A DNA stretch of 64,000 nucleotides from Nemertoderma westbladi (taxonomy: Eukaryota; Animalia; Xenacoelomorpha), in the NCBI GenBank assembly GCA_032718475.1, contig JAUCBJ010009163.1, positions 164,836 to 228,835 on the forward strand, written 5' to 3'. The position numbers and the translations under genes are program-made. Below are positions 12,901 to 46,789 of this stretch, piece after piece. Each line of letters opens with the position of its first letter. Position 1 is the stretch's first letter. The notes below the pieces were generated by a model. It ran no database searches, had not been told where the DNA came from, and saw only the letters and a program-made list of their open reading frames with translations.

Positions 12901-15900
12901 TCGATTTTCATATTTATAACTTCTAACCCACTCCAAGAGATAGAGAATCTTAAATGAAAGTCACAAGAACAGGTAACACTTACAATTATAGCAGTAATAA
13001 GCTGTTATTTGCTACGTCTTTCCGCTGAAAATGAATGAATTATTTCATATTTATAACTTCTATCCCACTCCACGAGATAGAGAATCTTAAATGAACGTCA
13101 AAAGAACAGGTAACACTTACATTTATAGCAGTAATCAGCTGTTATTTGCTACGTCTTTCCGCTGGAGATGGATGAATTTTGATTGCATTGGAACACCCCC
13201 TATCTGTGGCTGTATGAGTGGAGAGATAAGTAGCCTATCTCCCTGTTAATATTGTTGTGTTCTAGAATATTTATTATAGTTTCATCGTATTGCTAAAGTG
13301 ACTAGAGCTGAATTTAACTCATAATACAATAATTCACCTCAAATATCTCAGCTATTTCATGAACATAATGAAGTATTAAAGCCATGTCAAAATCCTTGGT
13401 GTTTTTCTGCAATAATTTATCAAAATATCCTCTGTTTTTTTACAAAAAGCATATCGATTTTCATATTTATAACTTCTAACCCACTCCAAGAGATAGAGAA
13501 TCTTAAATGAAAGTCACAAGAACAGGTAACACTTACAATTATAGCAGTAATAAGCTGTTATATGCTACGTCTTTCCGCTGGAGATGGATGAATTTTGATT
13601 GTGTCAGAACACCGCCTATATCTGTGGCTGTCTAAGTGGAGAGATAAGTATCCTATTTCCGTGTTAATATTGTTGTGTTCTAGAATATTTATTATAGTTT
13701 CATCGTATTGCTAAAGTGGCTGGAGCTAAAGTTATTATGTAATGCAATAATTCACCTCAAATATCACAGCTATTTCATGAACATAATGAAGTATTAAAGC
13801 CATGTCAAAATACTTGGTGTTTTTCTGTAATAATTTATCAAAATATCCTCATATTTTTTTTAAAAACCATTTCGATTTTCTTATTTATATCTTCTAACCC
13901 ACTCCACGAGATAGAGAATCTTAAATGAAAGTCAAAAGAACAGGTAACACTTACATTTATAGAAGTAATCAGCTGTTATTTGCTACGTCTTTCCGCTGAA
14001 GATGAATGAATTTTGATTGTGTCAGAACACCCCCTATCTGCGGCTTTCAGAGTGGAGAGATAAGTATCCTATCTCCCTATTAATATTGTTGTGTTCTAGA
14101 GTATTTTTTATAGTTTCATCATATTGCCAAAGTTACTAGAGCTGAAGTTAACTCATAATACAATAATTCACCTCAAATATCTCAGCTATTTCATGAACAT
14201 AATGAAGTATTAAAGCCATGTCAAAATCCTTGGTATTTTTCTGCAATAATTTATCAAAATATCCTCTGATCCTTTACTATAACCATATCGATTTTCATAT
14301 TTATAACTTCTAACCCAATCCACGAGATAGCGAATCTTAAATGAATGTCAAAAGAACAGGTAACACTTACATTAATAGAAGTAATCAGCTGTTATTTGCT
14401 ACATCTTTCTGCCAGAGATGGATGAATTTTGATTGTGTCAGAACACCCTCTATCTGTGGTTGTATTAGTGGAGAGATAAGTAGCCTATCTCGCTATTAAT
14501 ATTGTTGTATTCTATAATATTTATTATAGTTTCATCGTATTGCTAAAGTGGCTGGAGCTAAAGTTATTATGTAATGCAATAATTCACCTCAAATATCTCA
14601 GCTATTTCATGAACATAATGAAGTATTAAAGCCATGTCAAAATCCTTCGTGTTTTTCTGCAATAATTGATCAAAATATCCTGTAATTTTTTACAAAAACC
14701 ATATCGATTTTCATATCCCACTCCACGAGATAGAGAATCTTAAATGAACGTCAAAAGAACAGGTAACACTTACATTAATAGAAGTAATCAGCTGTTATTT
14801 GCTACATCTTTCTGCCAGAGATGGATGAATTTTGATTGTGTCAGAACACCCTCTATCTGTGGTTGTAGGAGTGGAGAGATAAGTATCCTATCTCCCTATT
14901 AATATTGTTGTGTTCTAGAATATTTTTTATAGTTTCATCGTATTGCCAAAGTGACTGGAGCTGAAGTTAACTTATAATACTATAATTCACCTCAAATATC
15001 TCAGCTATTTCATGAACATAATGAAGTATTAAAGCCATGTCAAAATCATTGGTGTTTTTCTGCAATAATTTATCAAAACATCCTCTGATTTTTTTCAAAA
15101 ACCACATCGATTTTCTTATTTATATCTTCTAACCCACTCCACGAGATAGAGAATCTTAAATGAAAGTCAAAAGAACAGGTAACACTTACATTTAAAAGTA
15201 AAGTAAAAAAAAAAGACTTTATAGAAGTAATCAGCTGTTATTTGCTACGTCTTTCCGCTGAAAATGAATGAATTATTTCATATTTATAACTTCTATCCCA
15301 CTCCACGAGATAGAGAATCTTAAATGAACGTCAAAAGAACAGGTAACACTTACATTTATAGCAGTAATCAGCTGTTATTTGCTACGTTTTTCCGCTGGAG
15401 ATGGATGAATTTTGATTGCATTGGAACACCCCCTATCTGTGGCTGTATGAGTGGAGAGATAAGTAGCCTATCTCCCTGTTAATATTGTTGTGTTCTAGAA
15501 TATTTATTATAGTTTCATCGTATTGCTAAAGTGACTAGAGCTGAAGTTAACTCATAATACAATAAATCACCTCAAATATCTCAGCTATTTCATGAACATA
15601 ATGAAGTATTAAAGCCATGTCAAAATCCTTGGTGTTTTTCTGCAATAATTTATCAAAATATCCTCTGTTTTTTTACAAAAAGCATATCGATTTTCATATT
15701 TATAACTTCTAACCCACTCCAAGAGATAGAGAATCTTAAATGAAAGTCACAAGAACAGGTAACACTTACATTTATAGCAGTAATAAGCTGTTATATGCTA
15801 TGTCTTTCCGCTGGAGATGGATGAATTTTGATTGTGTCAGAACACCGCCTTATCTGTGTGGCTGTCTAAGTGGAGAGATAAGTATCCTATTTCCGTGTTA

Positions 15901-18900
15901 ATATTGTTGTGTTCTAGAATATTTATTATAGTTTCATCGTATTGCTAAAGTGGCTGGAGCTAAAGTTATTATGTAATGCAATAATTCACCTCAAATATCA
16001 CAGCTATTTCATGAACATAATGAAGTATTAAAGCCATGTCAAAATACTTGGTGTTTTTCTGTAATAATTTATCAAAATATCCTCATATTTTTTTTTAAAA
16101 ACCATTTCGATTTTCTTATTTATATCTTCTAACCCACTCCACGAGATAGAGAATCTTAAATGAAAGTCAAAAGAACAGGTAACACTTACATTTATAGAAG
16201 TAATCAGCTGTTATTTGCTACGTCTTTCCGCTGGAGATGGATGAATTTTGATTGTGTCAGAACACCCCCTATCTGCGGCTTTCAGAGTGGAGAGATAAGT
16301 ATCCTATCTCCCTATTAATATTGTTGTGTTCTAGAATATTTTTTATAGTTTCATCGTATTGCCAAAGTTACTAGAGCTGAAGTTAACTCATAATACAATA
16401 ATTCACCTCAAATATCTCAGCTATTTCATGAACATAATGAAGTATTAAAGCCATGTCAAAATCCTTGGTATTTTTCTGCAATAATTTATCAAAATATCCT
16501 CTGATTCTTTACTATAACCATATCGATTTTCATATTTATAACTTCTAACCCACTCCACGAGATAGCGAATCTTAAATGAAAGTCAAAAGAACAGGTAACA
16601 CTTACATTAATAGAAGTAATCAGCTGTTATTTGCTACATCTTTCTGCCAGAGATGGATGAATTTTGATTGTGTCAGAACACCCCCTATCTGTGGTTGTAT
16701 GAGTGGAGAGATAAGTAGCCTATCTCCCTATTAATATTGTTGTGTTCTAGAATATTTATTATAGTTTCATCGTATTGCCAAAGTGACTGGAGCTGAAGTT
16801 AACTTATAATGCAATAATTCACCTCAAATATCTCAGCTATTTCATGAACATAATGAAGTATTAAAGCCATGTCAAAATCCTTGGTGTTTTTCTGCAATAA
16901 TTTATCAAAATATCCTCTGATTCTTTACTATAACCATATCGATTTTAATATTTATAACTTTTAACCCACTCCACGAGATAGATAATCTTAAATGAAAATC
17001 AAAAGAACAGGTAAAACTTACATTTATAGATGTAATCAGTTGTTATTTGCTACGTCTTTCCGCTGGAGATGGATGAATTTTGATTGTGTCAGAACACCCC
17101 CTATCTGTGGCTTTGTGAGTGGAGATATAAGTAGCCTATCTCCCTATTAATATTGTTGTGTTCTAGAATATTTATTATAGTTTCATCGTATTGCTAAAGT
17201 GGCTGGAGCTAAAGTTATTATGTAATGCAATAATTCACCTCAAATATCACAGCTATTTCATGAACATAATGAAGTATTAAAGCCATATCAAAATACTTGG
17301 TGTTTTTCTGTAATAATTTATCAAAATATCCTCTGATTTTTTTCAAAAACCACATCGATTTTCTTATTTATATCTTCTAACCCACTCCACGAGATAGAGA
17401 ATCTTAAATGAAAGTCAAAAGAACAGGTAACACTTACATTTATAGAAGTAATCAGCTGTTATTTGCTACGTCTTTCCGCTGAAGATGAATGAATTTTGAT
17501 TGTGTCAGAACACCCCCTATCTGTGGCTTTCTGAGTGGAGATATAAGTAGCCTATCTCCCAATTAATATTGTTGTGTTCTAGAATATTTTTTATAGTTTC
17601 ATCGTATTGCCAAAGTGACTAGAGCTGAAGTTAACTCATAATACAATAATTCACCTCAAATATCTCAGCTATTTCATGAACATAATGAAGTATTAAAGCC
17701 ATGTCAAAATCATTGGTGTTTTTCTGCAATAATTTATCAAAACATCCTCTGATTTTTTTCAAAAACCACATCGATTTTCTTATTTATATCTTCTAACCCA
17801 CTCCACGAGATAGAGAATCTTAAATGAAAGTCAAAAGAACAGGTAACACTTACATTTATAGAAGTAATCAGCTGTTATTTGCTACGTCTTTCCGCTGAAA
17901 ATGAATGAATTATTTCATATTTATAACTTCTATCCCACTCCACGAGATAGAGAATCTTAAATGAACGTCAAAAGAACAGGTAACACTTACATTTATAGCA
18001 GTAATCAGCTGTTATTTGCTACGTCTTTCCGCTGGAGATGGATGAATTTTGATTGCATTGGAACACCCCCTATCTGTGGCTGTATGAGTGGAGAGATAAG
18101 TAGCCTATCTCCCTGTTAATATTGTTGTGTTCTAGAATATTTATTATAGTTTCATCGTATTGCTAAAGTGACTAGAGCTGAAGTTAACTCATAATACAAT
18201 AATTCACCTCAAATATCTCAGCTATTTCATGAACATAATGAAGTATTAAAGCCATGTCAAAATCCTTGGTGTTTTTCTGCAATAATTTATCAAAATATCC
18301 TCTGTTTTTTTACAAAAAGCATATCGATTTTCATATTTATAACTTCTAACCCACTCCAAGAGATAGAGAATCTTAAATGAAAGTCACAAGAACAGGTAAC
18401 ACTTACATTTATAGCAGTAATAAGCTGTTATATGCTACGTCTTTCCGCTGGAGATGGATGAATTTTGATTGTGTCAGAACACCGCCTTATCTGTGGCTGT
18501 CTAGAGTGGAGAGATAAGTATCCTATTTCCGTGTTAATATTGTTGTGTTCTAGAATATTTATTATAGTTTCATCGTATTGCTAAAGTGGCTGGAGCTAAA
18601 GTTATTATGTAATGCAATAATTCACCTCAAATATCACAGCTATTTCATGAACATAATGAAGTATTAAAGCCATGTCAAAATACTTGGTGTTTTTCTGTAA
18701 TAATTTATCAAAATATCCTCATATTTTTTTTAAAAACCATTTCGATTTTCTTATTTATATCTTCTAACCCACTCCACGAGATAGAGAATCTTAAATGAAA
18801 GTCAAAAGAACAGGTAACACTTACATTAATAGAAGTAATCAGCTGTTATTTGCTACATCTTTCTGCCAGAGATGGATGAATTTTGATTGTGTCAGAACAC

Positions 18901-19132
18901 CCTCTATCTGTGGTTGTAGGAGTGGAGAGATAAGTAGCCTATCTCCCTATTAATATTGTTGTGTTCTAGAATATTTATTATAGTTTCATCGTATTGCTAA
19001 AGTGACTGGAGCTGAAGTTAACTTATAATACAATAATTCACCTCAAATATCTCAGCTATTTCATGAACATAATGAAGTATTAAAGCCATGTCAAAATCCT
19101 TGGTGTTTTTCTGCAATAATTTATCAAAATAT
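6970..19132. repeat. ~415-bp tandem satellite array, block 2, with multi-kb internal duplications
   Basis: Same monomer. Diagnostic variants recur about 4.7 kb apart, e.g. the insertion TTTAAAAGTAAAGTAAAAAAAAAAGAC at ~10470 and ~15190. Confidence 0.98.
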
Positions 19133-19604
19133 GTGAGGTTTGATCAAGAAATCGACCTACCGTTGCAAAATATTATTTCACATAATTAGAGGTTGAAGTC
19201 AAAATAGTTCATTTGGTATTAAAATATCGAATTTTATTTTTTGACTTTTTCTAGATCAGAATTTTTTGCTAATTCTGAAACTGTAAACGAAATTTTCATA
19301 TCTATTTTAGTTTTGGAGTTATTTGATTTTTTGTAGACCTCACTCATTTTGAAATTATTATAAATAAGTGGCCAAATATTTGTAAGATTCAGTAACAGTA
19401 TTACTCAAAATACTATAATTGTATTTGTCCTACAGAATAATTTTTGCTATGAGTTTTCCTGTTCAGTGATTTAATTTCAATTGTTACTTTCCACGGCTGA
19501 CGGATCATAGACTGTCGATCAGTCTGTTTGTCTGTCTGTCTGTGTGTCCGTTTGTCTGTCAAAAATTAAGGAAACATGATATCTAACAAAATGTTTTGCT
19601 TTGG
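19133..19604. mobile_element. AT-rich fragment of a probable non-autonomous element with a (GTCT)n microsatellite, lying where the BEL 5' LTR is expected
   Basis: Abrupt exit from the satellite at 19132. The (GTCT/GTCC)n tract at ~19521-19560 resembles those at ~51770 and ~51900. There is no similarity to the 3' LTR. Confidence 0.5.
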
Positions 19605-22600
19605 GGGTTTTCTCGGAAGGCGATTCCATTTCCAACGAGTCGACACACGACGGCGGTCGACATGCCAGTGTCGCCGGCCAGCCACAGGCCGAGGGCGACG
19701 GACGGCCCACTGGAACGGCGACGGTGGGGCCGCCGGCACGACGCCGGACCCAGAGAGATGTAGGAGATGTCGGCAATGAGGACGTCGGGGTCCGCGATCG
19801 ACTTCAACGGGCCTACAACGCCACCCGGAAATCACTTAAGGAGGCCAAGGAGGGGGCCCAGATAGACGAGGTAAACCTAAATAAAAAACTAGGTGAGTCG
19901 AACGAACATTTTGACTATCTAAAACGTTTTGGGCAGGGAGAACTAGCCAGCGAGAGAGCGAGAGGGGTTGCCACCGAACTGTTCGAACTATGGGAATGCA
20001 GGGGTATGGAACCTAGCGTAGTGTACATAGGGCCATACTTAGTCGATGCCCGGGGAATAAAATTAGTGGGTTGGAGGAAACCGCAGGAGGGCGAATCCGA
20101 GGTTAACCCCGAGGATTCAGTCTCATCGGTCGGAAAAGGTTCCGAAAAAAGGGGGGGGGGGGGTTAGTAGGACGGGAAGGCGGAGGGAATCCGTCGCAAC
20201 CGATAAGTCTGCTACATCCTCCGTAAAAGAAAGACGGGTGAGAGAAATAAATGCGGCGTGTTATCTCGATCTAATAGCGCAAGACCAGAGAGAAGTAGAG
20301 AGACAGTTAGAGGAGGGGAGAGTGCTATTAGAGAAAGAAATGGAACTGGCTAGAGAGACCGGAGAGAGGGCCGAGAAAGCCGCAAGAAGCTTTAGGGAGT
20401 GTGAGGAAATAGGGAGGAAGGAACGAGAAGAGCGCGAGGCGAGAGAGGAGTGTGAACGCAAAGAGCGCGAGGCTGAACGAAAGGAGCGCGAGGCAGAACT
20501 TAAAGAGCGTGAGGTGGCAAGGGAAGCGAAACGAATGGAGAGAGTTGAGAGAGCGAGGGATTTGGCCGAGCAGAGCGCGCGGGAGAGTCGGGAGAGAGCA
20601 GCGGAGGGGAAGCGTGTGCGGGATGGTTTACATGCCCGCCTAGGGGGGCTCATTCAATACCAAACCAAACAAAAGCGCAGACTAAAAATGGCCCAGCTGG
20701 GGCTATCAGAAAGTGACGCTGGCTCGAGCATTTTCGAGGAGCCAAGGGTCGAAGAAACATTTATTAATACCCCACTTACAGGGACCGCACGACAGACCCG
20801 AGACTGGTGTAACCGTACGGGCGGGGGGGGGGGGGGGGTAATAATAATAATACAGTAGATAACGTTGATATTAATAGTACCGTACTAGATAATTCTAATC
20901 AAACTTTCATTGCAGGAAATAATATTTTGCCCGACAGTAGTAATTTAAATCCTAGTGATTCTAATATTAATGTAGGAAATAATTCAAATAATTTAAATCT
21001 AGGTCCGAATTTACAAAATAATCCAAATAATTTAAATATAAATCTGAATTTACAAAATAATTCAAATAATCTTATTTCGAACGAGCAAAATAATTCCGTT
21101 TCTAATTTGGGCGCACAAGGTAACTTAATCGAGTTAGAGGATTTAATTGATCTAACCGATGACAATATTAGTGGTGCTATTAACGTGAACGTGTCGGATG
21201 TGTATAACCCGGCAGACGAGGGCCTGGTAGGCCTACAGCTAGTAGGCAGAAAGTTGCGGGGTTGAGCCAACCCGAAGAGGGCCTGGTAGGCCACTTAGTT
21301 AGTGGGCTGGAAGTGGCGGGGTTGAGCCAACCCGGAGAGGGCCTGGTAGGCCACGTAGTTAGTAGGCAGGGAGTGGCTGGGTTGGGTAAACCCAGCGAGG
21401 GCCTGGTAGGCCACGTAGTTAGTAGGCAGAAAGTAGAGGGCCTGGTAGGCCACACAATAGCAGAGGGAGAGGCGGGGGTGAATAGACCCAGCCGCAGTAG
21501 GGTTGACGTGTCGGCTAGAGAGGGATATAGTAGCGGGGTGAGAGATAGTGAAGTTAGATGTGGCGAGTGGGGGGGGGGGGGGGGGGGGCTACAGGAGCCC
21601 CACAACAGCGAGTTAGCGGCGAAAGGGGGGGGGGGGCAGAGAGTGCCCCACAGGCGTCGACGGATAATGCGCGGGCCGAGACAGGTAAACCGCAACACCC
21701 GGCGACGGAGAGTGATAGGGGGATTGCGAGTATCCCCAGCGGCGTGCAATCGAGCAGAGAGAGACAGGTTGACGTCGCGAGAGGGCGGACGAAGCGTCGA
21801 GCCCGATCAGAAGAGGGAAGAAGAACAGTGGAGTTTAACCGGGAGGTCGACGAGAGATCTCACGAGCGGGAATACTGCACTACAGAGAGAAGAAGGGAAG
21901 AGAGTAGAAGAAGTGTCGCCGCGAACGACAGGAGAGCGAGGACGGATAGCGAGCCGTCGGTAGTAGAGGTGGAGACGGAGAGTCAGCAGGGTCGAACTTC
22001 GGGAGATTGCCGTCGCCCCGGAGGAGCGCGACCTGACGAGGCGTATTGCGCGCAGAGAGAGGGGTACGGGATGTACCGGCACGAGAGCGAGAGCAGTAGA
22101 GGGGGTCGAAGAGAAGCTTCCCGACGGGATATACCTACCGATCGAGAATGCGGTGGCCGCGGGGAGGATTATTCGAGAAGGATAAACTTCGATCCCGAGC
22201 GACACATACAGACTGCAGGACATACTGTAGGCCTTACTGCACATACCATAGGCTATGCTGAGAGAGATAATATAGGCGATAGGATAGCGCGAACAGCGGG
22301 ATTAAACCCGGAAGTCGCGGAGTATATACCGGCAAGGAGGCCAGAAGTAGATAGGCCTATACCGGTACCAGCACAGCAGTATGACTACAGCATGCAAGGA
22401 CATAACATATACCCAGGGGAAGGGGGGATTATTGCGGATAGATGCATGGGCTCCAATATATTAACATCAACCCCAGTACCAAATATACCAGTGGGGGGGG
22501 GGGGGGGGGGACAGGGTGACATTCCCCCATCACAATATCAACAATATACCCCAGTAGGAGTAAGAACATCGAACCCCTTGGACGAGAATAGATCATGCGA

Positions 22601-23008
22601 CACAGAAATATGGAGGGGGCCGCTACCCCCTATGATATATCCAAGTCAGAGGAAAGCGGCAAACAGGACGAACGGACCGCACCCAACGGGAGAACCTATG
22701 CAGCACCCATCGAACCCATTGGAAGCGCAAGCGGTGGGGATGGCCACGTTAATCGATGCACTAAAAACAAGGATCGAGTTACCACCCGTGGAACCATTCA
22801 AATTCGATGGGAGTAGGCCGGAAGAATACCTACAGTTTCGGCGCATGTATAGTAACGAAATATTAACGAAAAATTTGACGCAGGCGGAGTGCCTAAAGTA
22901 TCTGCAAGTATATACAGGGGGCCCAGCATACGACATCGTGAGGCAATACCAGGGTATCGAGGGTGGCTTCACGACGGCATGGCGGGCGTTAGACAGGGAA
23001 TACGGCAC
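19601..23008 (+). pseudogene. gag: BEL/Pao Gag N-terminal part, about 1100 codons broken by frameshifts
   Basis: ORFs 19601, 20238, 20927, 21262 and 21558 join end to end across poly-G runs (~20151-20163, ~20823-20838, ~21568-21588) and a 1-nt deletion near 21235. The last piece has the BEL Gag core ELPPVEPFKFDGSRPEEYLQF...YLQVYTGGPA...AWRALDREYG. Confidence 0.8.
21218..21452 (+). repeat. 60-bp tandem repeat (20 codons) inside gag, two short hairpins per unit
   Basis: GGCCT-GGT-AGGCC occurs at 21221, 21280, 21340, 21400 and 21439. GGGTTG-AGC-CAACCC or a variant lies between the first four. Confidence 0.9.
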
Positions 23009-26000
23009 CCGGCCAAGATCATCCGGCAGACCCTGAGAGGTATAACATCGGGTGGCCTACAGGATAACCCCGTTAGCATAAAGACATTCGCTAACAAAGT
23101 CGAGAAGGCGCTAATCGTGCTAAAGACATTGGATGCGCCATACGAACTCAACGCGTCCAACAACATCACAACGATAGCCCAGGCACTTCCGATGTGGCTG
23201 CGCAATAAGTGGAGGAAAATCGCTTTCTCCACTCGAGATAGGAAGGGTGCGGAACCGGGTTTAGAAGAGATGTCAAGCTTCTTAAACTATGAAGCTGAAC
23301 TTATAACGGACCCAGTCTACAGCGAGGATAGCCTGGGAAAGGGATCAAAGACCGATTACCACAGGCCGAAACCAGAACATAACACATCAAACGCATTACC
23401 AAAGCTCAGGCAATCACTGCCATACGCAGCGACGCAGGGGACTGCAAGTCCACAGGTAGCCGAGGGTAAGACGACATCATGGAGCGGACAGGGGAAAAAT
23501 AACAACACAAATAAACATACCCCCAGTACGCCCAGTAGGCAGAATTCAAACAATAAGAACAGTAAGGACTTTGGTACAAATGCATCTGCGATACGCAATG
23601 CACTGTATAAGGATGGCTACGATCCAAAGAGCAAATGCCAGCTACATTCAAATGCGCTTCATCAGACCATGAACTGCAGGTACTGGCAGGCGCTACCCAG
23701 GGAAGATCAGGTAGAATACGCGGCGAGAAATGACATCTGCTCGCGATGCGTGATGAGTGGACACAGAGCTAGACAATGCAGAGAAACGCCAATTAAGTTC
23801 GGCCAGAGTAAAGGACAAACAATGGCAACAAGCACCGTAGTAGCAAAGAAGAGAGGGACGGTACTATTAGGGGTAGTACCAGTAAGGATAATCGGCGAAG
23901 GCAACCGATCAGTAACCACACTGATGCTGGTCGACAGTGGTGCAGCCTTCACCTTAGTTGAGGATTGGGTGGCCGAAGAGATAGGATTGAGAACGAGGCC
24001 AAGTAGAATGGCGGTAACAACCATCTCCAGCAAAGATGAGGTTCTGGAGATGAGAACCGGACGGTGCGCGATAGCAGCGGTAGCACCGGGATGCGATTAT
24101 GGGGCGACCATCGACCCCATCCAGGTGATAGAGTCGATAAATATTAACGCCAGGCGGCCAACCAACATCGAGGTCGAACAATACAGATTCCTGGACAGTA
24201 TCGACTTCTCAATCCCAGAGGTGGACGTTAGGAAGGTATCCATCATAGTAGGAATGGACTGCCCAACGGCCCACGAGAGAATGCAAACGGTCTTCGGCGA
24301 AGACAGGCAGTGTGACCCGGTGGCGATATTGACACCATTCGGGTGGACACTGAGTGGCCCAATCAAGAGTAAGATACCATTTAGGATGTCGGAGACATCA
24401 GGATGCATGTTCGCGGGAACTATGCGAGAGATGGAGGATGAGGGAGCAGAGGAGCAGCTCAGGAGACTGCTCAGGCAGGATTTTGAGGGATTAAAGGAGA
24501 CCGGGGTCGGAACCTCGGTAGAAGACAAGCAGGCTTTACAAAGTGTAAAGGAATCGATGACATGCGATGAGGGGCGGTATACCATAGGGATGGTATGGAA
24601 GCTACCAAAGCTACCGTTACCCGACAACAAAGGGATGGTACTTACGAGGCTTCGCAAGTTAAAGCAGACGTTAAAACGGAGCCCCGAGAAGAATGAGTAC
24701 ATCCACAAGACAATTAGAAAGTATGTCGAGAAAGGATGGGCCGTGGAGTTACCGGTCGACGAGCCAAACACGGACAGGACCTATTACCTGCCACTCCACG
24801 TGGCTATAGACCCGAAGAAAGGTAAACTGCGGATGGTAGTTGACGCATCAGCCAAGACCAACGGGAAATGCCTAAACGATTATCTGCTGGAGGGTCCCAA
24901 CATCTACAACTCAGGGATCGAGGTCCTACTCAGATTCAGGAATGGCAAACACGCTTTCACCTGCGACATCGAAGGCATGTTCAACCAAGTCCGTGTAACG
25001 GAAGAGGATAGCGACAGCCAACGCTTCCTATGGTACGACGGCGATGAGGAACCGTCGACCATACCAATGTATAAGATGGTAGTACAGAATATGGGAGCCA
25101 AGTCGTCTTCGTTTACAATGACTATGGCCGTAAGAGATACGGTAGCAGGGAAGGAAGATAAGTTCAGCGCCAAAGCCGTCGATATGATTCGACGCGGCTT
25201 CTACGTAGACGACGGGATGGAGTCTGGAAATACGGTTAAGGAGCTACTGGACACAGGGCGCGAGGTTCGCGACATCCTTAAAGGATCCGGCTTCAACCTA
25301 ACCAAATTCCAATCCAGTTCGAAGGAATTTATCGAGGCAATAAAAGACGAGAGACCAGGATCGACCATGGATAATCCCACAACAGCCAAGGGGCAGGACA
25401 TGGCGAACAAGAGGATAGAGTCTCAACAGAAGGCACTGGGAATCGTGTGGAACAGAGAGACAGACGAGTTAAAATACCAATTGAGTCAGGAGGGAGCAGG
25501 TATCCACACAAAGAGGGGCTATGTGTCATATATAGCGAGGATATACGATCCCCTAGGCCTAGCATCCCCATTACTAGTCACGGGGAAACAGATACTCAAG
25601 AGAGTATACAAATTAAAGGACGAGTGGGACGCAGAGGTCCCAGAAGAGATTAGTAAGCAGTGGAACAAGTGGACAGAGAGTTTAGAGCAGATGGGAACAT
25701 ACAGCATGCCGCGTGTATATTTCCCGGATGGGGACATGACGAATCTGGATCTACATATGTTCTCCGATGCGTCATTAGAGGCATATGGAGCGGCACTCTA
25801 CTTAGTACAACGAGAGGGGGCTCACAAGCCCAGACTCGCATTCAGTAAAGCGAAGTCGACGCCACCAGACTCAGCATCAGTTCCGAAACTCGAGTTGACA
25901 GCTGCGAGATTAGGAGTTAGGGCCACAGCCTACTTAGTGGACGCTATTCCCAACATAGTGGAAACACATTACTGGACGGATTCCATGGTAGTGCTCGGTT

Positions 26001-27880
26001 GGCTACACAACGAAAGGACGAGATACCCTATATTCGTCGCGAATAGAGTGGACGAAATAAGGGCGACCACAGAACTGGAAAGGTGGCACTACTGCCCAAC
26101 GGACGAGAACCCAGCGGACTTGTTATCGAGGGGCGTGGTACGCCACACTTTCTTGAAGAAGGAAGTATTGTGGCAACACGGGCCACAGTTTCTGAGCGAT
26201 AGGGAGGCCTGGCCGCCGATGAGAAAGGTGGACCCGGGCTCAGGAGAAGTAGTGTCAGAAGGAGAAGAGGGAGATTCAGAGGGAGAGGAGATATACTCCC
26301 AGATGGTGAGGGAGATAAGGGACGTGCAACCAAAACCAGGAGAACTGTGCGATAACCCGACGGATAAACTCCTTAGCTACAGTTCTAGTTGGTACAAGAC
26401 CAAGAAGTTAGTGGCATACTGGAGAGCCTTCGGGAATTTCCTCAGGGGAGTTGGTAAAGACGTGAAGATTAGAACGACAATAGACCTGGAAGGAGCGGCC
26501 AAAGCAGTCATCCGCTACGAGCAGAGGAAGAACTACGGCGACGAGGTGGAACGCGTCGGTAAGCAACAGCATCTCCGGCGGGACAGCGAGCTGATCACGC
26601 TGTCACCACAACTTAATGACGACGGGATCCTAGTAATGAACTCTAGGGTGGGATACAACAACAGTATCGTCGTACCACCGAAGCCCATCATCATTCCCAC
26701 AGGATCGCCGATAGTCCACCAGATTATCTGGGACTCCCACAAATCGATATTGCACGGGGGCACCAACCGAACCCTCACGGAGATAAGAAGGACCTTTTGG
26801 GTCAAACAGCTGAGGAAGAAGGTAAAGGCGGTAGTGGGGCAGTGCCAGAGCTGCCGACGAGCGAAGAAGGAATGGGCCATACAGGAGATGGCGCCACTAC
26901 CGGCCAGTAGAGTAAGACAGCACGACCCGCCATTTACGCATTGCGGTGTGGATATGTTCGGGCCGATAAAGATTAAGGTGATGCGACACACGGAGAAACG
27001 CTACGGTATCATCTTCGTATGCAACAACACGCGGGCGGTAGGAATAGAACTCGCCCAAGATGCAACCGCATCAGCATTCATCAATGCTTTAGAAAGATTT
27101 AGAGACCGCAAAGGTGGGACAATCGCAGTGCTGTATTCTGACAGCGGGACCAACTTTGTGGGGGCGGAGAACGAGATGGCAGAGGCCTTGGATATCCTGG
27201 AAGGGGAGGAAGTCAGGGCGGCCATGAGAAGGCGACAAGTAAAGTGGGAGAGGAGGACGCCGTATGCTCCGCATACGCTAGGATGCGTCGAGAGATTAGT
27301 GGGTAGTTCGAAACGTCTGATGACGAAGCTGATGAACACCCACATGGTTACAGAAGACGTACTAAGGACAGTACTGGCAAAGTGTGAGGGTATCATTAAT
27401 AGCAGACCGCTATATCCAGAGAATGATGACCCTGAGTCATTAGACGTGCTGACGCCCAGTCACTTTCTAATGGAGAGGCCGGCGACAATCGACATGCGGG
27501 GTGTAGACCCAGACGACATACACTCCCGCCAGAGTTGGAAAGTCGCTATGGCAATAAGCGCAGAGTACTGGAGGAGGTGGGTCGAGGAATATCTGCCCAC
27601 ACTACACAGAAGAAGTAAGTGGAGGAACACGAACAGAGAGCTAAAGGAGGGTGATCTCGTGATCGTCACGGATGATACTATCATCAACAACCAATGGCGG
27701 TTGGCGAGAGTTGTGGGCACTTACTCCGATGAGGACGGAAGAGTCCGATCGGTAGAAGTGCGAATAGGTGGAAAGATCACATCAAGGTGCAAAAGACAGA
27801 AAGACCTACAGGAGGGCTGTAGGAAAATGCTGTCTACTAGAGGGGGCACCTTGATCTTGTGTGATTTTAGTGGAGTTTAG
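23008..27880 (+). CDS. pol: BEL/Pao Gag C-terminus plus Pol polyprotein (zinc knuckle, aspartic protease, RT, RNase H, integrase)
   Basis: ORF 22889-27880 has the knuckle CSRCVMSGHRARQC, protease LVDSGA, RT YYLPLH/RMVVDAS/DIEGMFNQV/FYVDDG, RNase H FSDAS/PKLEL/WTDS/NPADLLSRG, and integrase H..H..CQSC, GVDMFGP, SDSGTNF, VERLV. The BEL-like tail KTYRRAVGKCCLLEGAP* is in another frame ending at 27854, implying a frameshift near 27790. Confidence 0.96.
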
Positions 27881-27956
27881 TCGTCCAAGTTTTGGTCTGA
27901 GGGGGGTGGGATTGAGGGCGAGATGCCCTTCCCACACAATAAAATTAAAATAAAAA

Positions 27957-28420
27957 GTTAGTTAGTAAGAAGGTACGTAGTACCGTCAGTAGGCAGAAGT
28001 TAGTTAGTAAGAAGGTACGTAGTACCGTCAGTAGGCAGAAGTTAGTTAGTAAGAAGGTACATAGTACCGTTAGTTAGTTGGAGAGAGTTAGAGTTTAGTA
28101 AGAGGGTACATTGTACCGTTAGTTAGTTGGAGAGAGTTAGAGCTTAGTAAGAGGGTACATAGTACCGTTAGTTAGTCGGAGAGAGTTAGAGTTTAGTAAG
28201 AGGGTACATAGTACCGTTAGTTAGTTAATAGAGTTAGAGGTTAGTAAGAGGGTACATAGTACCGTTAGTTAGTTAGTAGAGTTAGAGGTTAGTAAGAGGG
28301 GACATAGTACCGTTAGTTAGTTAGTGGAGTTAGAGGTTAGTAAGAGGGTACGCAGTACCAATTAGTTAGTTAGTTAGAGAGAGTTAGAAGTTAGTAAGAG
28401 GGTACGTAGTACCGGTTAGT
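27957..28420 (+). repeat. Array of 10 GGTAC-NNN-GTACC hairpin units (period 42-54 nt) between pol and the extra ORF
   Basis: Stems start at 27972, 28014, 28056, 28105, 28154, 28203, 28251, 28299 (1 mismatch), 28347 and 28401. The linkers are (GTTA)n- and GAGA-rich. Confidence 0.93.
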
Positions 28421-28889
28421 AAGAGTAAGAGGTATAGGGATATATATATAGTACAGATATTAGTTAGTAGTTAGTAGCGAGAGGGGGGCATATGAGTACA
28501 GCTGGATAAATCGTGTAGGCCGCGCAACGCATACTGTTGTACTGCACAAGCCCACAGAGAAGGCCAGAATGTGGATTATGAAATAGAATAATCCATAGGC
28601 AATAGTTTAAAATATTAGAATTAAAATAAGAATAGGGCTGAAAAATTAACAAATTACAGTAACAATAGAAAAGAAAATTCTAGAACATAATAAAAGTAAC
28701 TGACAAAATTCGCAGTTTAGGTACAATTTGGTAGGTACAGAAATAAAGCCGTGTAAATAGGCTAATTAACTTAGTAATTCAGAGGGAGATAGGCCATCGA
28801 ACTGAGATAAACCACCTTAACCTATCACTCATCTTACTGCGCCTTGGTAAGGCACCACCCAGCGGGTGAGCAATCGGGTAAAGTTCGAG

Positions 28890-31346
28890 ATGGCAAGCAA
28901 ACTTGTGCGAAAGAGAAAGGCGGAGCTAGGAGGAAAGGAGATATTGGTGGATTTCACCAAGAGACATCCGGAAGAGATAACGAGGGGATACTACGAACGG
29001 TTAGAGAGGGGTCATGCAGCGCGAGCGCTACAGGACCACTTCAGGGAGGTGCATGAACAGCGGCTGGTTGGGACCTATGGGACGCCATCGCTGGACAACG
29101 CGATCTTCGAGCACTTCCACTACGTGGTAAAAGGAGACGAAGCGAAGTTCGGGATTCCGAAGTATGCAAGGGATCCACCGAGGAAGGATTGGAAGAGATT
29201 CGTAGAGTCCGTCGGCAGAGAAGGATATATGGTCATGGATGATGGGGGGACTGTGGAAGACGAGGAGGGTTCGAGGAGAGGATCGGCGGCATCGGCCAGA
29301 ACCATACTCCTACATTTGGTCGCGCCAAATGGGGACATATTCCTATTCGATCTAGGAACGTATGGAAAGAAGGATGGACCGAAGTTAAACCGGCTACCAA
29401 AGGCGGTGCAAGCACTAGTGAGAGAGAAGTCAACGACAAAAGTGGGATCGGCGATTCGCGACGACGCGGAGAGAATCATCGGTCCGGACACCCCCAACCT
29501 TCTGGATACGCAGACGGTCTACATGGCTATGACAGCACCGGATGGGTTGGGACTAATAGAGAACACAGGACATTGCGGGGCAGTGGCGATGGGCCAGTTA
29601 ATGGGGCTCGTGTGTCACAAACCGATGGACTGGGGCAAGTTCAGAGAGGAGTACGGAGCAGACTTGGCGAGCTCGTTAAAGTGGGGAGCAAGGCCAGGGA
29701 GACAATATGTGTATCAATTCCGGAGAGGAGCTATAAAGGTATATCAGAGGCGATATATCCTACAGGAGGACTGGATAATGATAGGTTTGCCTAACCTATT
29801 CATGACCGTGATTATCGAGAGAGAACCAACGGCATTCCTATTATCGAGATCACCCCTAAGCTACAGAACGTTTAAGACGGCTTTTGAGGGTCTGGTAGAC
29901 CACCCGGGGCTGAAGGGCGAGTCGGTGTACTACAACAGCCGACATCTGGTAGACGTGGAGGTGGATACGCCGTGTCAGAGATGGGAGCAGCTAGAGACGG
30001 ATAGACGAGAGGCGAAGCGACTGGAAGAAGTCGCCAGATGGGAGAGGATAGAAGCAGAAGAAAGGGAGGAGGAAGCTAGGGCACAGAGCTACGGCTTCGA
30101 GGAACAGGCGGGCTTGGATGAACTTCGTTGGACTTCATCAGGGAGTTCGGGGGAGTCTCTAGGGCGAGAACTGGGATGGACGGTGGGGTCACCGAAACAG
30201 TCGACGTCGGGATTGCAGGCGACGCCCATACCAGCGGGCGCCGAGGGCGACCAGCCGCTAAGGAGGCTAGGGGAGCTAGAGGGATGGAGAGCTACGGGCG
30301 AGAGCCAAGGCGGGAAGGGACATAGTGGGTACACCGGGATACCGGGGTTGAAGCCACTCCCAGAGGAGGACGAAGACGACGACGAGTTCGGAGAGATGCC
30401 GCCCATCGGGAGGATCGGCCACTCAGACACAGACTGGGTTGGCGGGAGGGTGGTGATGGCCAGTGGGACAAGGGCTTTCTGGAATAGACCCGGCAAGCGG
30501 GCCTGGGTGCACGACGAGCCGGTGATGGATTTCGCGGGGAGCACCATTAGGTTGGGCGAGCAACCGGGGACGGCACCACGGGTAGTATTCGGGGAGACGA
30601 TGCCCGAGAGGGGCGAAGAGGTCGACGTAGATAGGGACGCTAACGTCCGGAAGTTCGCTTACCAGCGACTCCACAGACCACGGAGATCGCTTGGGACGAA
30701 AGACGACGTGGGGCGGGAGACATTGGTACTCGGCTGTGACTACTGTGGGAAACAGACCCATCAGGAAAGGAGCTGTTTGTACCGGTTCCAGAAAGGGACT
30801 TATTGTCTCTATTGCCGCGAGTCGAGCCACAGGATGGGGGCGTTTCCACGGTTGCATAACCGATGTTCGAAGTGTAACTTTCGGGGACATTACGGATGCC
30901 AGTGCGACTGGATGGACGACGAAGAGAAGTTTAGGGTCTTCGAAGAATGGGCCGACGTCGGGGCGATGACTCGGCAACGTATGAAGGCCCAGGAGCTCCG
31001 GTGGGACTTCTTTAACATCAATCAGGAGGCTCACATGGAGATTATCAAACGGAGGCTTCCATTTACCTACCAGGAAGTGGCGATGGCGGCATCATATGCC
31101 GGAGTGATAAATACGCAGAGGTATTTGGACAGGTGGACGCCACAGAGTAGAGGAGAGTTTAGGGATTTCTTGGCGGAGCATGTGCCGCGGGCAATGAAGA
31201 TGATCCTATGGGATGCCATCAGGGGGAGACAACAGGGCCACTCGGAAGGGCCACCCGCGAAGCGATACCGGGAGCTAATAACACCGGCACCCAAGGAGTC
31301 GACGACCGGGATCAGTAAGGAGGTGGCGGCGAGGGTCCGAAGATAG
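28890..31346 (+). CDS. Retrotransposon accessory ORF3 (~818 aa): DnaQ/DEDDy-like 3'-5' exonuclease domain, charged linker, three CCHC zinc knuckles
   Basis: Uninterrupted 2.46-kb ORF with first ATG at 28890 (GAGATGG). WRN/EXD/Mut-7-like pattern: YMVMDDGG...ILLHLVAPNGDIFLFDL...LPKAVQALVREKSTTKVGSAIRDDAERI...NLLDTQTVY...YQRRYILQED. Knuckles: CDYCGKQTHQERSC, CLYCRESSHRMGAF (last C to F) and CSKCNFRGHYGCQC. Confidence 0.8.
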   Translation: MASKLVRKRKAELGGKEILVDFTKRHPEEITRGYYERLERGHAARALQDHFREVHEQRLVGTYGTPSLDNAIFEHFHYVVKGDEAKFGIPKYARDPPRKDWKRFVESVGREGYMVMDDGGTVEDEEGSRRGSAASARTILLHLVAPNGDIFLFDLGTYGKKDGPKLNRLPKAVQALVREKSTTKVGSAIRDDAERIIGPDTPNLLDTQTVYMAMTAPDGLGLIENTGHCGAVAMGQLMGLVCHKPMDWGKFREEYGADLASSLKWGARPGRQYVYQFRRGAIKVYQRRYILQEDWIMIGLPNLFMTVIIEREPTAFLLSRSPLSYRTFKTAFEGLVDHPGLKGESVYYNSRHLVDVEVDTPCQRWEQLETDRREAKRLEEVARWERIEAEEREEEARAQSYGFEEQAGLDELRWTSSGSSGESLGRELGWTVGSPKQSTSGLQATPIPAGAEGDQPLRRLGELEGWRATGESQGGKGHSGYTGIPGLKPLPEEDEDDDEFGEMPPIGRIGHSDTDWVGGRVVMASGTRAFWNRPGKRAWVHDEPVMDFAGSTIRLGEQPGTAPRVVFGETMPERGEEVDVDRDANVRKFAYQRLHRPRRSLGTKDDVGRETLVLGCDYCGKQTHQERSCLYRFQKGTYCLYCRESSHRMGAFPRLHNRCSKCNFRGHYGCQCDWMDDEEKFRVFEEWADVGAMTRQRMKAQELRWDFFNINQEAHMEIIKRRLPFTYQEVAMAASYAGVINTQRYLDRWTPQSRGEFRDFLAEHVPRAMKMILWDAIRGRQQGHSEGPPAKRYRELITPAPKESTTGISKEVAARVRR

Positions 31347-32041
31347 AAAGCAGATCCCAGAGGAGCGGCCGTAACCAGGAAACGACCCAGGGAGGAGGAC
31401 GGCAAAGGGAAAGACTTGAGGTGGTTCCCAAAGACTGGTGGAACGAACTAGGACTTTGGAGTAATATGCCTGGAAGGCACCGAGCGAGACAGGCGAACTC
31501 CTAAGTATAAATTAAGTAATTCAAATAATTAAAAAAGGTGCAATTAGTAGGTACGTACGTAGCAATCATTATTAGTTTAGCGAAATATAATTGAAGTAAG
31601 TACTATAGTTACTCAACCTTTTTCCAATTAGCTACTGGACCGGGGATGACTGACTATGACGAACGAGACACTAGACGACTTCACATTTCCAGAGTGTGAC
31701 GGCACAGGAGAGGGGGATGGGACTCGTCAGAGATGAGTGAGTTAGCCAAAGAGGGGTCGAGCGATGGAGCGACAGTGCGAAGTGCAGAGGGAGTGCGAGT
31801 GCAATTCAAGTGTGGGGGGGGGGGGAGGAACAAGAGGGTAAATGAGGGACAGGGAAGTCCGAAAGTTAGAGTGGAGGTGAGGAGAAGTAGCGAGAGTCAG
31901 GGTGAGAATGATGTCGAGTTAGAGTGGCGAAAGTGTTTGGGAAACAAAGGTCGTGTGAGAGGAGCGCATGATCGGCCCGACACGGCACGCCAGGTAGACA
32001 GGGTAGCGAGATCCAGCGGAATCGTAGCGCACTTGAGGTGG

Positions 32042-32079
32042 ATGCTATCTTCTTACCGGGAAGATAGCATGGGGGGGAG
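32042..32079 (+). promoter_or_regulatory. Polypurine tract GGGGGGGAG (32071-32079) preceded by a perfect 11-bp hairpin
   Basis: ATGCTATCTTC (32042-32052) pairs with GAAGATAGCAT (32060-32070). GGGGGGGAG follows and abuts TGTT, the usual BEL PPT-LTR junction form. Confidence 0.75.
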
Positions 32080-32653
32080 TGTTAGCGGATTCAATTCCGC
32101 TAACCAGCCCCATAAAGTGAGCTTTAACCAATATTGGGAACACGAGGTTGATACCCAATATCAACCTCGTACCACCCCAATAAAGTGGGGACAAGGAAAC
32201 CCCAGAGGACGTACGCACAAAGGGGTCAAGGGTTACACCCCTGAGAGAGAGAGAGAGAATAACAGGGGCAATGGGAAACACACCAGGGAAGGTGAAAGGG
32301 CGACAACGAGGGTATTAGCCATTAGGGGGGAAGCATCAACTGGGTAGAGCAATATGGCCAACTGTGCAATATATATTACCGGTCCATGCAATATTCATTC
32401 ACTTGTAGTAAGTCAGCTAGTTAGGACAGTAGCGGAACTCTAGTTACCGTCTCCGCCTACTGTCATCAGTACAATCACATACCGGTACATTACAGCTTTA
32501 TGCTTTATCTCTATTATATCATATATCCCGAGCTTATATATATATCGACCGATCAACAACCTATAACTCTTTACATCTTTCACACGCGGTGGGGACGCGT
32601 AGACTAGAAACCAAAACCCGGATAAACCGGGATCTTCCGCAGATCCCATGACA
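32080..32653 (+). repeat. 3' LTR of the BEL/Pao element (574 bp)
   Basis: Starts TGTTAGCGGAT right after the PPT and ends ATCCCATGACA (imperfect inverted termini, 8/11). The satellite resumes at 32654. A TATA-like tract lies at ~32535. No second LTR is in the window to confirm it. Confidence 0.75.
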
Positions 32654-35600
32654 ATAGAAGTAATCAGATGTTATTTGCTACATCTTTCTGCCAGAGATGG
32701 ATGAATTTTGATTGTGTCAGAACACCCCTTATCTGTGGTTGTATGAGTGGAGAGATAAGTAGCCTATCTCGCTATTAATATTGTTGTTATATTTATTATA
32801 GTTTCATCGTATTGCTAAAGTGGCTGGAGCTAAAGTTATTATGTAATGCAATAATTCACATCAAATATCTCAGCTATTTCATGAACATAATGAAGTATTA
32901 AAGCCATGTCAAAATCCTTCGTGTTTTTCTGCAATAATTGATCAAAATATCCTGTAATTTTTTACAAAAACCATGTCGATTTTCATATTTATAACTTCTA
33001 TCCCACTCCACGAGATAGAGAATCTTAAATGAAAGTCAAAAGAACAGGTAACACTTATATTTATAGAAGTAATCAGCTGTTATTTGCTATGTCTTTCCGC
33101 TGAAGATGAATGAATTTTGATTGTGTCAGAACACCCCCTATCTATGGTTGTATGAGTGGAGAGATAAGTATCCTATCTCCCTATTAATATTGTTGTGTTC
33201 TAGAATATTTTTTATAGTTTCATCGTATTGCCAAAGTGAATGGAGCTGAAGTTAACTCATAATACAATAATTCACCTCAAATATCTCAGCTATTTCATGA
33301 ACATAATGAAGTATTAAAGCCATGTTAAAATCATTGGTGTTTTTCTGCAATAATTTATCTAAATATCCTCTGATTTTTTTCAAAAACTTTATCGATTTTC
33401 ATATTTATAACTTCTATCCCACTCCACGAGATAGAGAATCTTAAATGAACGTCAAAAGAACAGGTAACACTTACATTTATAGAAGTAATCAGCTATTATT
33501 TGCTACGTCTTTCCGCTGGAGATGTATGAATTTTGACTGTGCCAGAACACCCCCTATCTGTGGTTGTATGAGTGGAGAGATAAGTAGCCTATCTCCCTAT
33601 TATTATTGTTGTATTCTAGAATATTTATTATTGTTTCATCGTATTGCTAAAGTGGCTGGAGCTAAAGTTATTATGTAATGCAATAATTCACCTCAAATAT
33701 CTCAGCTATTTCATGAACATAATGAAGTATTAAAGCCATGTCAAAATCCATGGTGTTTTTCTGCAATAATTTATCAAAATATCCTCTGATTCTTTACTAT
33801 AACCATATCGATTTTCATATTTATAACTTCTATCCCACTCCACGAGATAGAGAATCTTAAATGAAAGTCAAAAGAACAGGTAACACTTATATTTATAGAA
33901 GTAATCAGCTGTTATATGCTACGTCTTTCCGCTTGAGATGGATGAATTTTGATTGTGTCAGAACACCCCCTATCTGTGGCTGTCTGAGTGGAGAGATAAG
34001 TATCCTGTTTCCGTGTTAATATTGTTGTGTTCTAGAATATTTATAACAGTTTCATCGTATTGCCAAAGTGACTGGAGCTGAAGTTAACTTATGCAATAAT
34101 TCACCTCAAATATCTCAGCTATTTTATGAACATAATGAAGTATTAAATCCATGTCAAAATCCTTGGTATTTTTCTGCAATAATTTATCAAAATATCCTCT
34201 GATTTTTTTCAAAAACCATATCGATTTTCATATTTATAACTTCTATCCCACTCCACGAGATAGAGAATCTTAAATGAAAGTCAAAAGAACAGATAACACT
34301 TACATTTATAGAAGTAATCAGCTGTTATTTGCTACGTCTTTCCGCTTGAGATGGATGAATTTTGATTGCGTCAGAACACCCCCTATCTGTGGCTGTCTGA
34401 GTTGAGAGATAAGTAGCCTATCTCCCTATTAATATTGTTGTGTTCTAGAATATTTATTATAGTTTCATCGTATTGCTAAAGTGGCAGGAGCTAAAGTTAT
34501 TATGTAATGCAATAATTCACCTCCAATATCTCAGCTATTTCATGAACATAATGAAGTATTAAAGCCATGTCAAAATCCTTGGTATTTTTCTGCAATAATT
34601 TATCAAAATATCCTCTGATTCTTTACTATAACCATATCGATTTTAATATTTATAACTTCTAACCCACTCCACGAGATAGAGAATCTTAAATGAAAGTCAA
34701 AAGAACAGGTAACACTTACATTTATAGAAGTAATCAGCTGTTATTTGCTACGTCTTTCCGCTTGAGATGGATGAATTTTGATTGTGTCAGAACACCCCCT
34801 ATCTGTGGCTGTCTGAGTTGAGAGATAAGTAGCCTATCTCCCTATTAATATTGTTGTGTTCTAGAATATTTATTATAGTTTCATCGTATTGCTAAAGTGG
34901 CAGGAGCTAAAGTTATTATGTAATGCAATAATTCACCTCCAATATCTCAGCTATTTCATGAACATAATGAAGTATTAAAGCCATGTCAAAATCCTTGTTG
35001 TTTTTCTGCAATAATTTATCTAAATATCTTCTAATTTTTTACAAAAACCATAATATAGATTTTCATATTTATAACTTCTATCCCACTCCATGAGATAGAG
35101 AATCTTAAATGAAAGTCAAAAGAACAGGTAACACTTACATTTATAGAAGTAATCAGCTGTTATTTGCTACGTCTTTCCGCTGGAGATAAATGAATTTTGA
35201 TTTCATTGGAACACCCCCTATCTGTGGCTTTATGAGTGGAGAGATAAGTAGCTTATCTCCCTATTAATATTGTTGTGTTCTAGAATATTTATTATTGTTT
35301 CATCGTATTGCCAAAGTGACTGGAGCTGAAGTTAACTTATAATACTATAATTCACCTCAAATATCTCGGCTATTTCATGAACATAATGAAGTATTAAAGC
35401 CATGTCAAAATCCTTGGTGTTTTTCTGCAATAATTTATCAAAATATCCTCTGATTTTTTACAAAAACCATATCGATTTTCATATTTATAACTTCTATCCC
35501 ACTCCACGAGATAGATAATCTTAAATGAACGTCAAAAGAACAGGTAACACTTACATTTAAGGCAGTAATCACCTGTTATTTGCTACGTCTTTCTGCTGGA

Positions 35601-46644: not shown

Positions 46645-46789
46645 CTGTAAAAATCAAACATATTTTAAGTTAGATTTCGTATAAGAATACGAAATCAAAT
46701 ATAAGAATAATATTAGAATTACATTATTTATATACATACAGCACAATATATATTCAATATTTTTATATACTCTATATCACTTACTAGTT

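Follow-up and report, generated by a model that had tools for sequence, protein, structure and literature searches.

Palindrome arrays and dispersed GGU-loop hairpins in a BEL/Pao retrotransposon of Nemertoderma westbladi

The described systems that come closest to the locus considered here include viral packaging signals, the tandem repeats of Drosophila errantiviruses, and a repeat within a cellular long non-coding RNA. The A-repeat of Xist consists of tandem short GC-containing palindromic cores separated by spacers, in which local hairpins compete with inter-repeat pairing, and the stem-loops SL2 and SL3 of HIV-1 carry GGNG loops. The psi elements of the HIV-1 leader are bound by the zinc knuckles of nucleocapsid (NC), as described in one account (PMC7395439), and dispersed packaging signals (PS) that direct PS-mediated assembly are described for RNA viruses and hepatitis B virus in two others (PMC9065705, PMC7612645). 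Likewise, tandem repeats in the untranslated regions (UTRs) of the Drosophila errantiviruses ZAM (307 bp, 2.3 copies) and Tirant (102 bp, 2-6 copies) are given in a further paper (PMC5408687). Here, a stretch of 64,000 nucleotides from the xenacoelomorph Nemertoderma westbladi (assembly GCA_032718475.1, contig JAUCBJ010009163.1, positions 164,836 to 228,835), hereafter the window, is analysed for a BEL/Pao retrotransposon that bears two arrays of short palindromes. Array 1 lies on its gag side, and array 2 lies between pol and a third open reading frame (ORF), ORF3. All positions are those of the window, and the features of the element are on the plus strand.

The original prediction, made from the letters of the stretch, had treated the two arrays as one reiterated structural RNA signal with covarying stems. 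The hairpin of array 1 is probably a selected nucleic-acid structure. It recurs at dispersed sites of the element with compensating changes in its stem, and the claim of a repeated structural RNA signal is to that extent supported; it is not supported for array 2.

The gag-side array and its solitary counterparts

Array 1 (21218-21451) is situated in an open frame and consists of five GGCCT-GGT-AGGCC palindromes carried on a 60-nt coding repeat, the peptide of which is a 20-amino-acid repeat (EGLVGHVVSRQKVAGLSQPG). The sequence GGCCTGGTAGGCC occurs exactly five times, at 21221-21233, 21280-21292, 21340-21352, 21400-21412, and 21439-21451, so that the unit and the five copies foreseen for it are borne out, all of them being perfect. 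Tandem Repeats Finder (TRF) describes the region 21218-21434 by a period of 60 with 3.6 copies and 86% matches. Every full 60-nt unit includes a second palindrome that the original prediction had missed, namely GGGTTG-AGC-CAACCC at 21259-21273 and 21319-21333, with the variant GGGTT-GGGTA-AACCC at 21379-21393. The 3' flank that had been assigned to the unit, ACGTAGTTAGTAGGCAG, stands exactly in two of the five units (21340 and 21400), is diverged at 21221 and 21280, and is absent after 21439. Just upstream of the array, at 20969-21085, a 39-nt repeat in 2.4-3 copies encodes an asparagine-rich low-complexity stretch.

The evidence that carries the finding comes from a search in which the closing pair and loop of array 1 (TGGTA) were sought elsewhere with other stems. 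Three of the 16 sense-strand cores outside the arrays (26132, 28841, and 29889) are enclosed by four further complementary pairs, compared with none of the 21 antisense cores. The simple expectation for this number is 0.06, and dinucleotide shuffles gave a mean of 0.036 with none of 1000 reaching three. The stricter pattern GGNN-TGGTA-NNCC was observed twice against an expectation of 0.003.

The solitary hairpins differ in their stems and agree in their surroundings. GGCGT-GGT-ACGCC (26132-26144) lies in pol between the flanks G and AC, GGTCT-GGT-AGACC (29889-29901) lies in ORF3, and GCCTT-GGT-AAGGC (28841-28853), which is followed by AC, is non-coding and lies 37 nt before the ORF3 start, counted to its first ATG. 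A looser match, CGCGA-GGT-TCGCG (25259-25271), is again found in pol and again followed by AC. AC stands directly 3' of the array-1 hairpin and of all four solitary GGT-loop hairpins, and G stands directly 5' in four of the five types. The ORF3 hairpin agrees with the array-1 18-mer in 16 of 18 letters, the two differences being both sides of one pair, and the two in-stem differences of the pol hairpin at 26132 likewise form one pair. When nine distinct hairpin types are set out pair by pair, 45 of the 45 cells are paired, and each of the five pairs shows changes in both of its members, a table that is descriptive only because its rows were chosen as palindromes.

The coding part of the element is also rich in structure beyond this motif. 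Pol and ORF3 together (7476 nt) contain 16 perfect palindromes with five-pair arms and three-nucleotide loops (5-3-5), compared with 6.05 in synonymous-codon shuffles; their GGN loops number 5 against 0.49, and their GGT loops 3 against 0.11, and in each of these three counts none of 1000 shuffles reached the observed value. Short perfect hairpins with loop sizes of 3-7 are present 57 times in pol and ORF3 against about 26 expected, whereas two host ABC-transporter ORFs show 23 against about 24. Similarly, native 150-nt windows were more stable than those of synonymous shuffles by 10.2% in pol (folded over 22856-27877) and by 7.2% in ORF3 (28890-31343), with 0 of 30 shuffles equalling them, while the same folding test on the two ABC-transporter ORFs gave +2.5% and -5.9%. 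These control ORFs, of 767 and 488 amino acids, lie at 42968-46653 on the minus strand, each with ABC_membrane and ABC_tran domains, and represent a gene or gene pair. Among the non-array triloop palindromes of the 12.6-kb element (n = 21), eight have a GGN loop (binomial 4.7e-4) and four a GGT loop (4.1e-4), compared with one GGN and no GGT when the same 21 are read antisense.

The array between pol and ORF3

Array 2 (27956-28426) comprises ten non-coding units of 42-54 nt built around GGTAC-NNN-GTACC, with palindromes starting at 27972, 28014, 28056, 28105, 28154, 28203, 28251, 28299, 28347, and 28401. Ten copies had been claimed, and nine of them are perfect; the remaining one, at 28299, has a broken stem (GGGAC/GTACC). 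The sequence GGTACNNNGTACC occurs nine times within the array, and the last palindrome ends at 28413. Units 1 and 2 have a period of 42, and from there on the period is 48-54. As array 2 has stops in all three frames and array 1 is in an open frame, the arrays are indeed coding once and non-coding once, as had been stated. The block that is invariant over the ten units covers the stem and the 5' TTAGTAAGA, and within it the loop forms a variable island (GTA, ATA, ATT, or GCA).

Array 2 has neither the GGT loop nor the AC flank, and its core (C-RTA-G) has no dispersed copies in the element. Array 2 was rejected as a member of the motif class of array 1, and the claim that both arrays are one covarying signal is not upheld. 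The array is located just past two AATAAA hexamers (27938-27943 and 27949-27954), which lie between the pol stop and its first unit, and about 440 nt upstream of the ORF3 ATG; a TATA-like (AT)5 run (28440-28449) follows 27 nt past the last palindrome. This layout suits a DNA-level regulatory reading.

The wider family of the element was followed in contigs from four public DNA runs of one organism. The family is very abundant, as 41,032 contigs of one run (X1) map onto the element, and 2734 contigs of that run map onto array 2. Of the 496 places in array 2, 14 show variation of at least 15% across the family, with 12 of them in the flank, one in the loop, and one in the stem. None of the 14 breaks an intact stem; the one variable stem place is the broken pair of the window's own copy, which is intact in 90-94% of the depth (runs X1-X3). 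Copies of the family differ in their number of array-2 units, and contig joints skip 55-372 nt. Array 2 thereby shows the properties of a UTR tandem repeat, being non-coding, internal, and variable in copy number.

The two arrays do resemble each other to some degree. The original prediction was right about the 5' GAG/GAA, about GG/CC as the outermost pairs, and about the inner CCT/AGG of array 1 versus TAC/GTA of array 2. Common to both arrays are these outer pairs, GAR on the 5' side, and a 3' flank rich in UAG. The flanks agree best between GTTAGTAGGCAGAA and GTCAGTAGGCAGAA, a match of 13 of 14 letters that becomes 14 of 14 in the family, where position 27987 reads T in 60-77% of the depth (runs X1-X3). 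This match ranks in the top 0.41% of the element's own 12,567 22-mers, among which no fewer than two other loci equal or exceed its score. The flank similarity, which might have been a matter of purine- and TAG-rich composition, exceeds composition, though it is modest and exact in some units only. The short matches that link the two array regions are without exception plus/plus, among them a 16-mer (21125/28225) and a 10-mer (21450/27932) at the array borders, and 21125-21140 agrees with an array-2 spacer in 15 of 16 letters. The 12-mer CAGTAGGCAGAA of the array flanks has one further occurrence within pol (23533-23544), and AGTAGGCAG has one further occurrence at 42068. Taken by their letters, array 2 appears to behave like a fixed-sequence module, and array 1 like an RNA motif in which the loop is kept and the stems are free to vary.

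Candidate binders and competing explanations

The element encodes two candidate binding proteins within a few kilobases of the hairpins, and the zinc knuckles that had been assumed for them are present in both. Gag carries one CX2CX4HX4C knuckle (CSRCVMSGHRARQC), a Cys-Cys-His-Cys (CCHC) type. ORF3 (28890-31346) encodes 818 amino acids from its first ATG; its N-terminal half is predicted to resemble a DEDDy-type 3'-5' exonuclease, and the protein also has three Cys/His knuckles and a conserved block at its C-terminus. A full HMMER scan found 35 distant relatives of ORF3 (best 8.7e-15), and a profile of ORF3 with 12 of them matched the EXD2 3'-5' exonuclease at 2.3e-09, Egalitarian at 0.002, and the WRN exonuclease at 0.06, and also the knuckles of Lin28 (about 2e-6) and of HIV-1 NC (about 5e-3). 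One relative matches PF01612 at 6.2e-05. ORF3 contains the Y-x3-[DE] motif; at the first motif the window copy has D-D-G, compared with D-x-E in nine of the 12 relatives. Single-sequence searches of Pfam and the PDB returned nothing useful for ORF3, a word-index search found no homologue, and its single-sequence AlphaFold model was poor (mean predicted local distance difference test, pLDDT, 36.3). ORF3 is predicted by the family profile to be exonuclease-like with knuckles of the Lin28/NC type, and not env-like. DEDDy-type ORF3s are reported for the Gypsy-like LTR (long terminal repeat) elements Juno and Vesta of bdelloids (PMC5408684). No report of a DEDDy ORF3 in BEL/Pao was found in the literature searched.

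The knuckles of Lin28 and of HIV-1 NC both bind GG-containing loops. As in psi, the GGU triloops of array 1 would expose G within an element that has both a Gag CCHC knuckle and knuckles in its ORF3 family. It is tentatively proposed that the array-1 hairpin is an RNA motif, a multivalent site on which zinc-knuckle proteins would act when RNA is selected or paired. The palindrome G-GGNNU-GGU-ANNCC-AC would fold as a hairpin of the sense-strand RNA, rather than of single-stranded complementary DNA; the CCHC proteins of the element, either Gag or the ORF3 exonuclease-knuckle protein, would dock on these hairpins, their knuckles presumably binding the exposed GG of the loop, and the outcome may be packaging or dimerisation of the genomic RNA. 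Array 2 is placed only loosely in this scheme, in that pairing of its self-complementary units might take place inside one RNA molecule or join two; for it a DNA-level role is nearly as likely as the RNA scheme. A bolder version, which we consider quite improbable, supposes a private GGU-triloop code, written in the gag-side array and in the pol and ORF3 copies and read by the element's own knuckles, with array 2 zipping two genomes together. If that were true, it would amount to PS-mediated assembly in an LTR retroelement, overprinted on coding sequence.

Several observations weigh against the proposed RNA motif. The motif is sparse because there are only three to four solitary copies, and each array counts as one event because its five or ten copies are duplicates. 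Outside the element, 3 of 75 TGGTA/TACCA cores have four further pairs against about 0.3 expected, although without the shared flanks. A general enrichment of G in all hairpin loops was considered and rejected, as the pooled loops of the 57 short hairpins gave G 0.333 against 0.311 (P = 0.23). Partition-function folding that included 100 nt to either side gave the five local pairs a mean probability of 0.04 (array 1) and 0.14 (array 2), and of 0.94, 0.00, 0.00, and 0.60 for the four solitary GGT hairpins. In minimum-energy folds the palindrome halves pair between units in both arrays; the local 5-bp hairpins drawn in the original prediction are not the predicted equilibrium fold within either one. 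Isolated hairpins are weak (-5.0 to -7.6 kcal/mol). Duplexes between units or molecules are more stable because the units are self-complementary (-14.7 to -25.6, the GGU loops adding G·U pairs). The folds of both arrays are nevertheless more stable than those of shuffled sequence (z = -3.43 and -3.11). In array 2, moreover, one variable stem place was seen against 2.8 expected, a depletion that is not significant; the conservation also covers the 5' TTAGTAAGA while the loop varies, and is thus not stem-specific; and the family contigs may sit on a wrong or neighbouring unit. Rfam 15 gave no covariance-model match at the arrays, its sole match being a sub-threshold PreQ1 at 19862-19898 (24.5 bits, where the gathering score is 39; E = 0.22).

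Some of these points would be expected if the arrays were functionless mutational by-products, in which a reverse transcriptase (RT) or a replication fork stalls and slips at a hairpin and duplicates the surrounding 40-60 nt, and in which template switching keeps the arms perfectly complementary without selection. The varying copy number of array 2, its conservation beyond the stem, and the non-significant depletion of stem variants would all fit, and with 21-22 triloop palindromes per 12.6 kb a repeat unit would often contain one by chance. Internal tandem repeats are, moreover, common in LTR retroelements, as PMC5408687 illustrates with ZAM and Tirant. We nevertheless regard this origin as rather unlikely, as it leaves unexplained why the same loop, closing pair, and flanks are found at four unlinked places on one strand, why the loops are biased to GGN, and why the folding energy exceeds that of synonymous shuffles by 7-10%; the flank common to the two arrays, complete in most of the family depth, also speaks against it. 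A different possibility is that array 2 acts as DNA, in which case a dimeric protein of the host or of the element would bind its palindromic sites and the array would function as an enhancer, as an insulator, or as a module for chromatin targeting, possibly driving an internal promoter of ORF3. Fixed arms around a variable spacer are the usual pattern of a dimer-binding site, and the 5' UTR of gypsy holds 12 Su(Hw) sites. Array 2 has just such fixed arms and a varying 3-bp spacer, and its non-coding position between the hexamers and the (AT)5 run, ahead of ORF3, is what this explanation would predict; PMC5408687 connects the UTR repeats of ZAM and Tirant with localisation in chromatin. However, the 3' flank of array 2 is common to the coding array 1, the (AT)5 run may be a plain microsatellite, and array-1-type hairpins, with stems that vary while the loop is kept, cannot be explained in this way, so that a DNA-level account seems unlikely.

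Two further explanations concern what the RNA or the protein would need locally. The units could be RNA-processing or translation signals for ORF3, containing decoy or masked G/GUA 5' splice-like motifs and UAG-rich sites for host proteins, with the all-frame stops clearing ribosomes after pol. For example, array-2 units 1 and 2 read AAG/GUACGU, the hairpin at 28841 holds G/GUAAG and is followed by a pyrimidine-rich ...CACCCAG, and GUUAGUUAGU gives UAG, UAG, or UAA in every frame. These likenesses are purely resemblances to consensus motifs; they give no reason for the complementarity of the arms, and the copies in array 1, pol, and ORF3 are far from any ORF boundary, which makes such a role very unlikely. 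Finally, array 1 could be a mere 20-amino-acid protein repeat (EGLVGH...) whose palindromes are incidental to its codons. Units 2 to 4 stay in frame through the 60-nt period, the array is part of a long sense-strand ORF chain, and the four coding GGT hairpin types all start at codon position 1. At the paired codons, however, the peptide is not the same (G, D, R) although complementarity of the nucleotides is retained, the synonymous shuffles destroy the signal, and the copy at 28841 is non-coding. In an alignment of ORF3 with 12 relatives, the hairpin site falls in a poorly conserved stretch. A protein motif fails to explain the array-1 hairpins because the peptide differs and the ORF3 site is poorly conserved; the hairpin as a conserved peptide motif was rejected on the synonymous shuffles, the ORF3 alignment, and the differing codons, and the incidental repeat is highly improbable.

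The element, its surroundings, and comparison with known systems

The array-bearing element is located in a 13.5-kb GC-rich, purine-skewed block (19133-32653), which splits a 416-bp satellite with 137-bp sub-repeat joints (1-19132 and 32654-37848). Its insertion was not clean, because the satellite is in phase 329 where it breaks off on the left and in phase 26 where it starts again on the right. The stretch 19133-19570 is unrelated and AT-rich, and it ends in a (GTCT)n-like run that is also present at 51921-51960. The gag side is formed by a chain of five overlapping ORFs (19580-23036) of 195, 263, 150, 251, and 492 amino acids which runs into gag; DUF1759, the gag domain, is at the end of the chain, in the ORF preceding the gag-pol ORF (22856-27880). 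The latter encodes 1674 amino acids and bears the one CCHC knuckle, an aspartic protease, RT, Peptidase_A17, an integrase, and DUF5641. With DUF1759 in gag, this is the domain set of a Pao-type element (Pfam: Peptidase_A17 1.3e-41, DUF5641 3.6e-22, Integrase_H2C2 6.3e-12, DUF1759 5.2e-05). The best relatives of pol are BEL/Pao polyproteins with 36% identity and an identical domain set, and those among them that bear a source name come from marine invertebrates and fish.

Self-comparison and repeat finding revealed no LTR pair in 18800-33200 or in the rest of the window, and no second copy of the element in the 64 kb. The window copy is a truncated or rearranged, LTR-less, frame-broken BEL/Pao retrotransposon. 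An LTR start at about 27924, after a purine run, and a primer-binding-site reading of TGGTA... were both considered, and the window offers no second copy with which to compare them. The frame breaks of the gag-side chain are located near G-homopolymer runs and within the first array-1 unit. Sense-strand runs of about 12-20 G are found at 20815-20843, 21561-21589, 22485-22513, and 31804-31832, the first three of which coincide with frame changes of the chain, and contigs of the public runs jump between them; they may be real glycine runs or homopolymer length errors.

Searches beyond the organism returned no counterpart. Two pattern scans of a viral-contig collection found no related DNA, and a protein scan of metagenome and viral contigs with the integrase end of pol found no relative. 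A 1675-nt metagenome contig from the scan with the array-2 core was dismissed as a chance match because the match was single, in unrelated sequence, and without an array.

Other features of the window lie to the right of the satellite. Three 5-3-5 palindromes centred on TGGTA/TACCA are present off the element at 37966, 40241, and 41184, without the G...AC flanks, and in the ORFs of 37.9-42.9 kb Pfam detected only a non-LTR endonuclease fragment and one weak match. An ORF at 49346-51693 has a weak GDSL-lipase match and an in-frame tandem repeat of 27 nt in 20.6 copies (49475-50031). A further array of 22 nt in 26.6 copies (53884-54451) is followed by an ORF for a non-LTR retrotransposon endonuclease of the apurinic type (55197-56036).

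No description of RNA selection in BEL/Pao, or of such a hairpin signal in this group, was found in the literature searched. A short, countable motif with natural compensatory variants would offer a direct handle on BEL/Pao RNA selection, with the two candidate binders encoded close by, and the differing behaviour of the arrays suggests that tandem repeats within retroelements need not all be one thing.

Compared with PS-mediated assembly, the array-1 hairpins are alike in being small predicted stem-loops across coding sequence with a common loop motif (-RGAG- there and GGU here) and differing stems. They differ in that only four solitary and five arrayed copies are present, although the pattern is non-random, that their binding proteins are candidates, and that they sit in an LTR retrotransposon, the Gag of which carries a zinc knuckle, with part of the signal arranged as a tandem array. 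The likeness to retroviral psi lies in short hairpins that would expose guanosines, the CCHC knuckles of the same element, and the multiplicity of sites; here, however, the loops are triloops, the hairpins are not confined to a 5' leader, this copy has no LTR or leader, and the binding is predicted. Array 2 resembles the repeats of ZAM and Tirant in being tandem, internal, non-coding, and of a unit number that changes from one copy to another, but it lies between pol and ORF3 instead of in the 5' UTR, belongs to BEL/Pao and not to Gypsy, and has units of 42-54 nt, each around a perfect palindrome. Similarly, the spaced tandem palindromic cores and the competition of local with inter-repeat pairing recall the Xist A-repeat, although Xist is a cellular long non-coding RNA with a different sequence and different partners.

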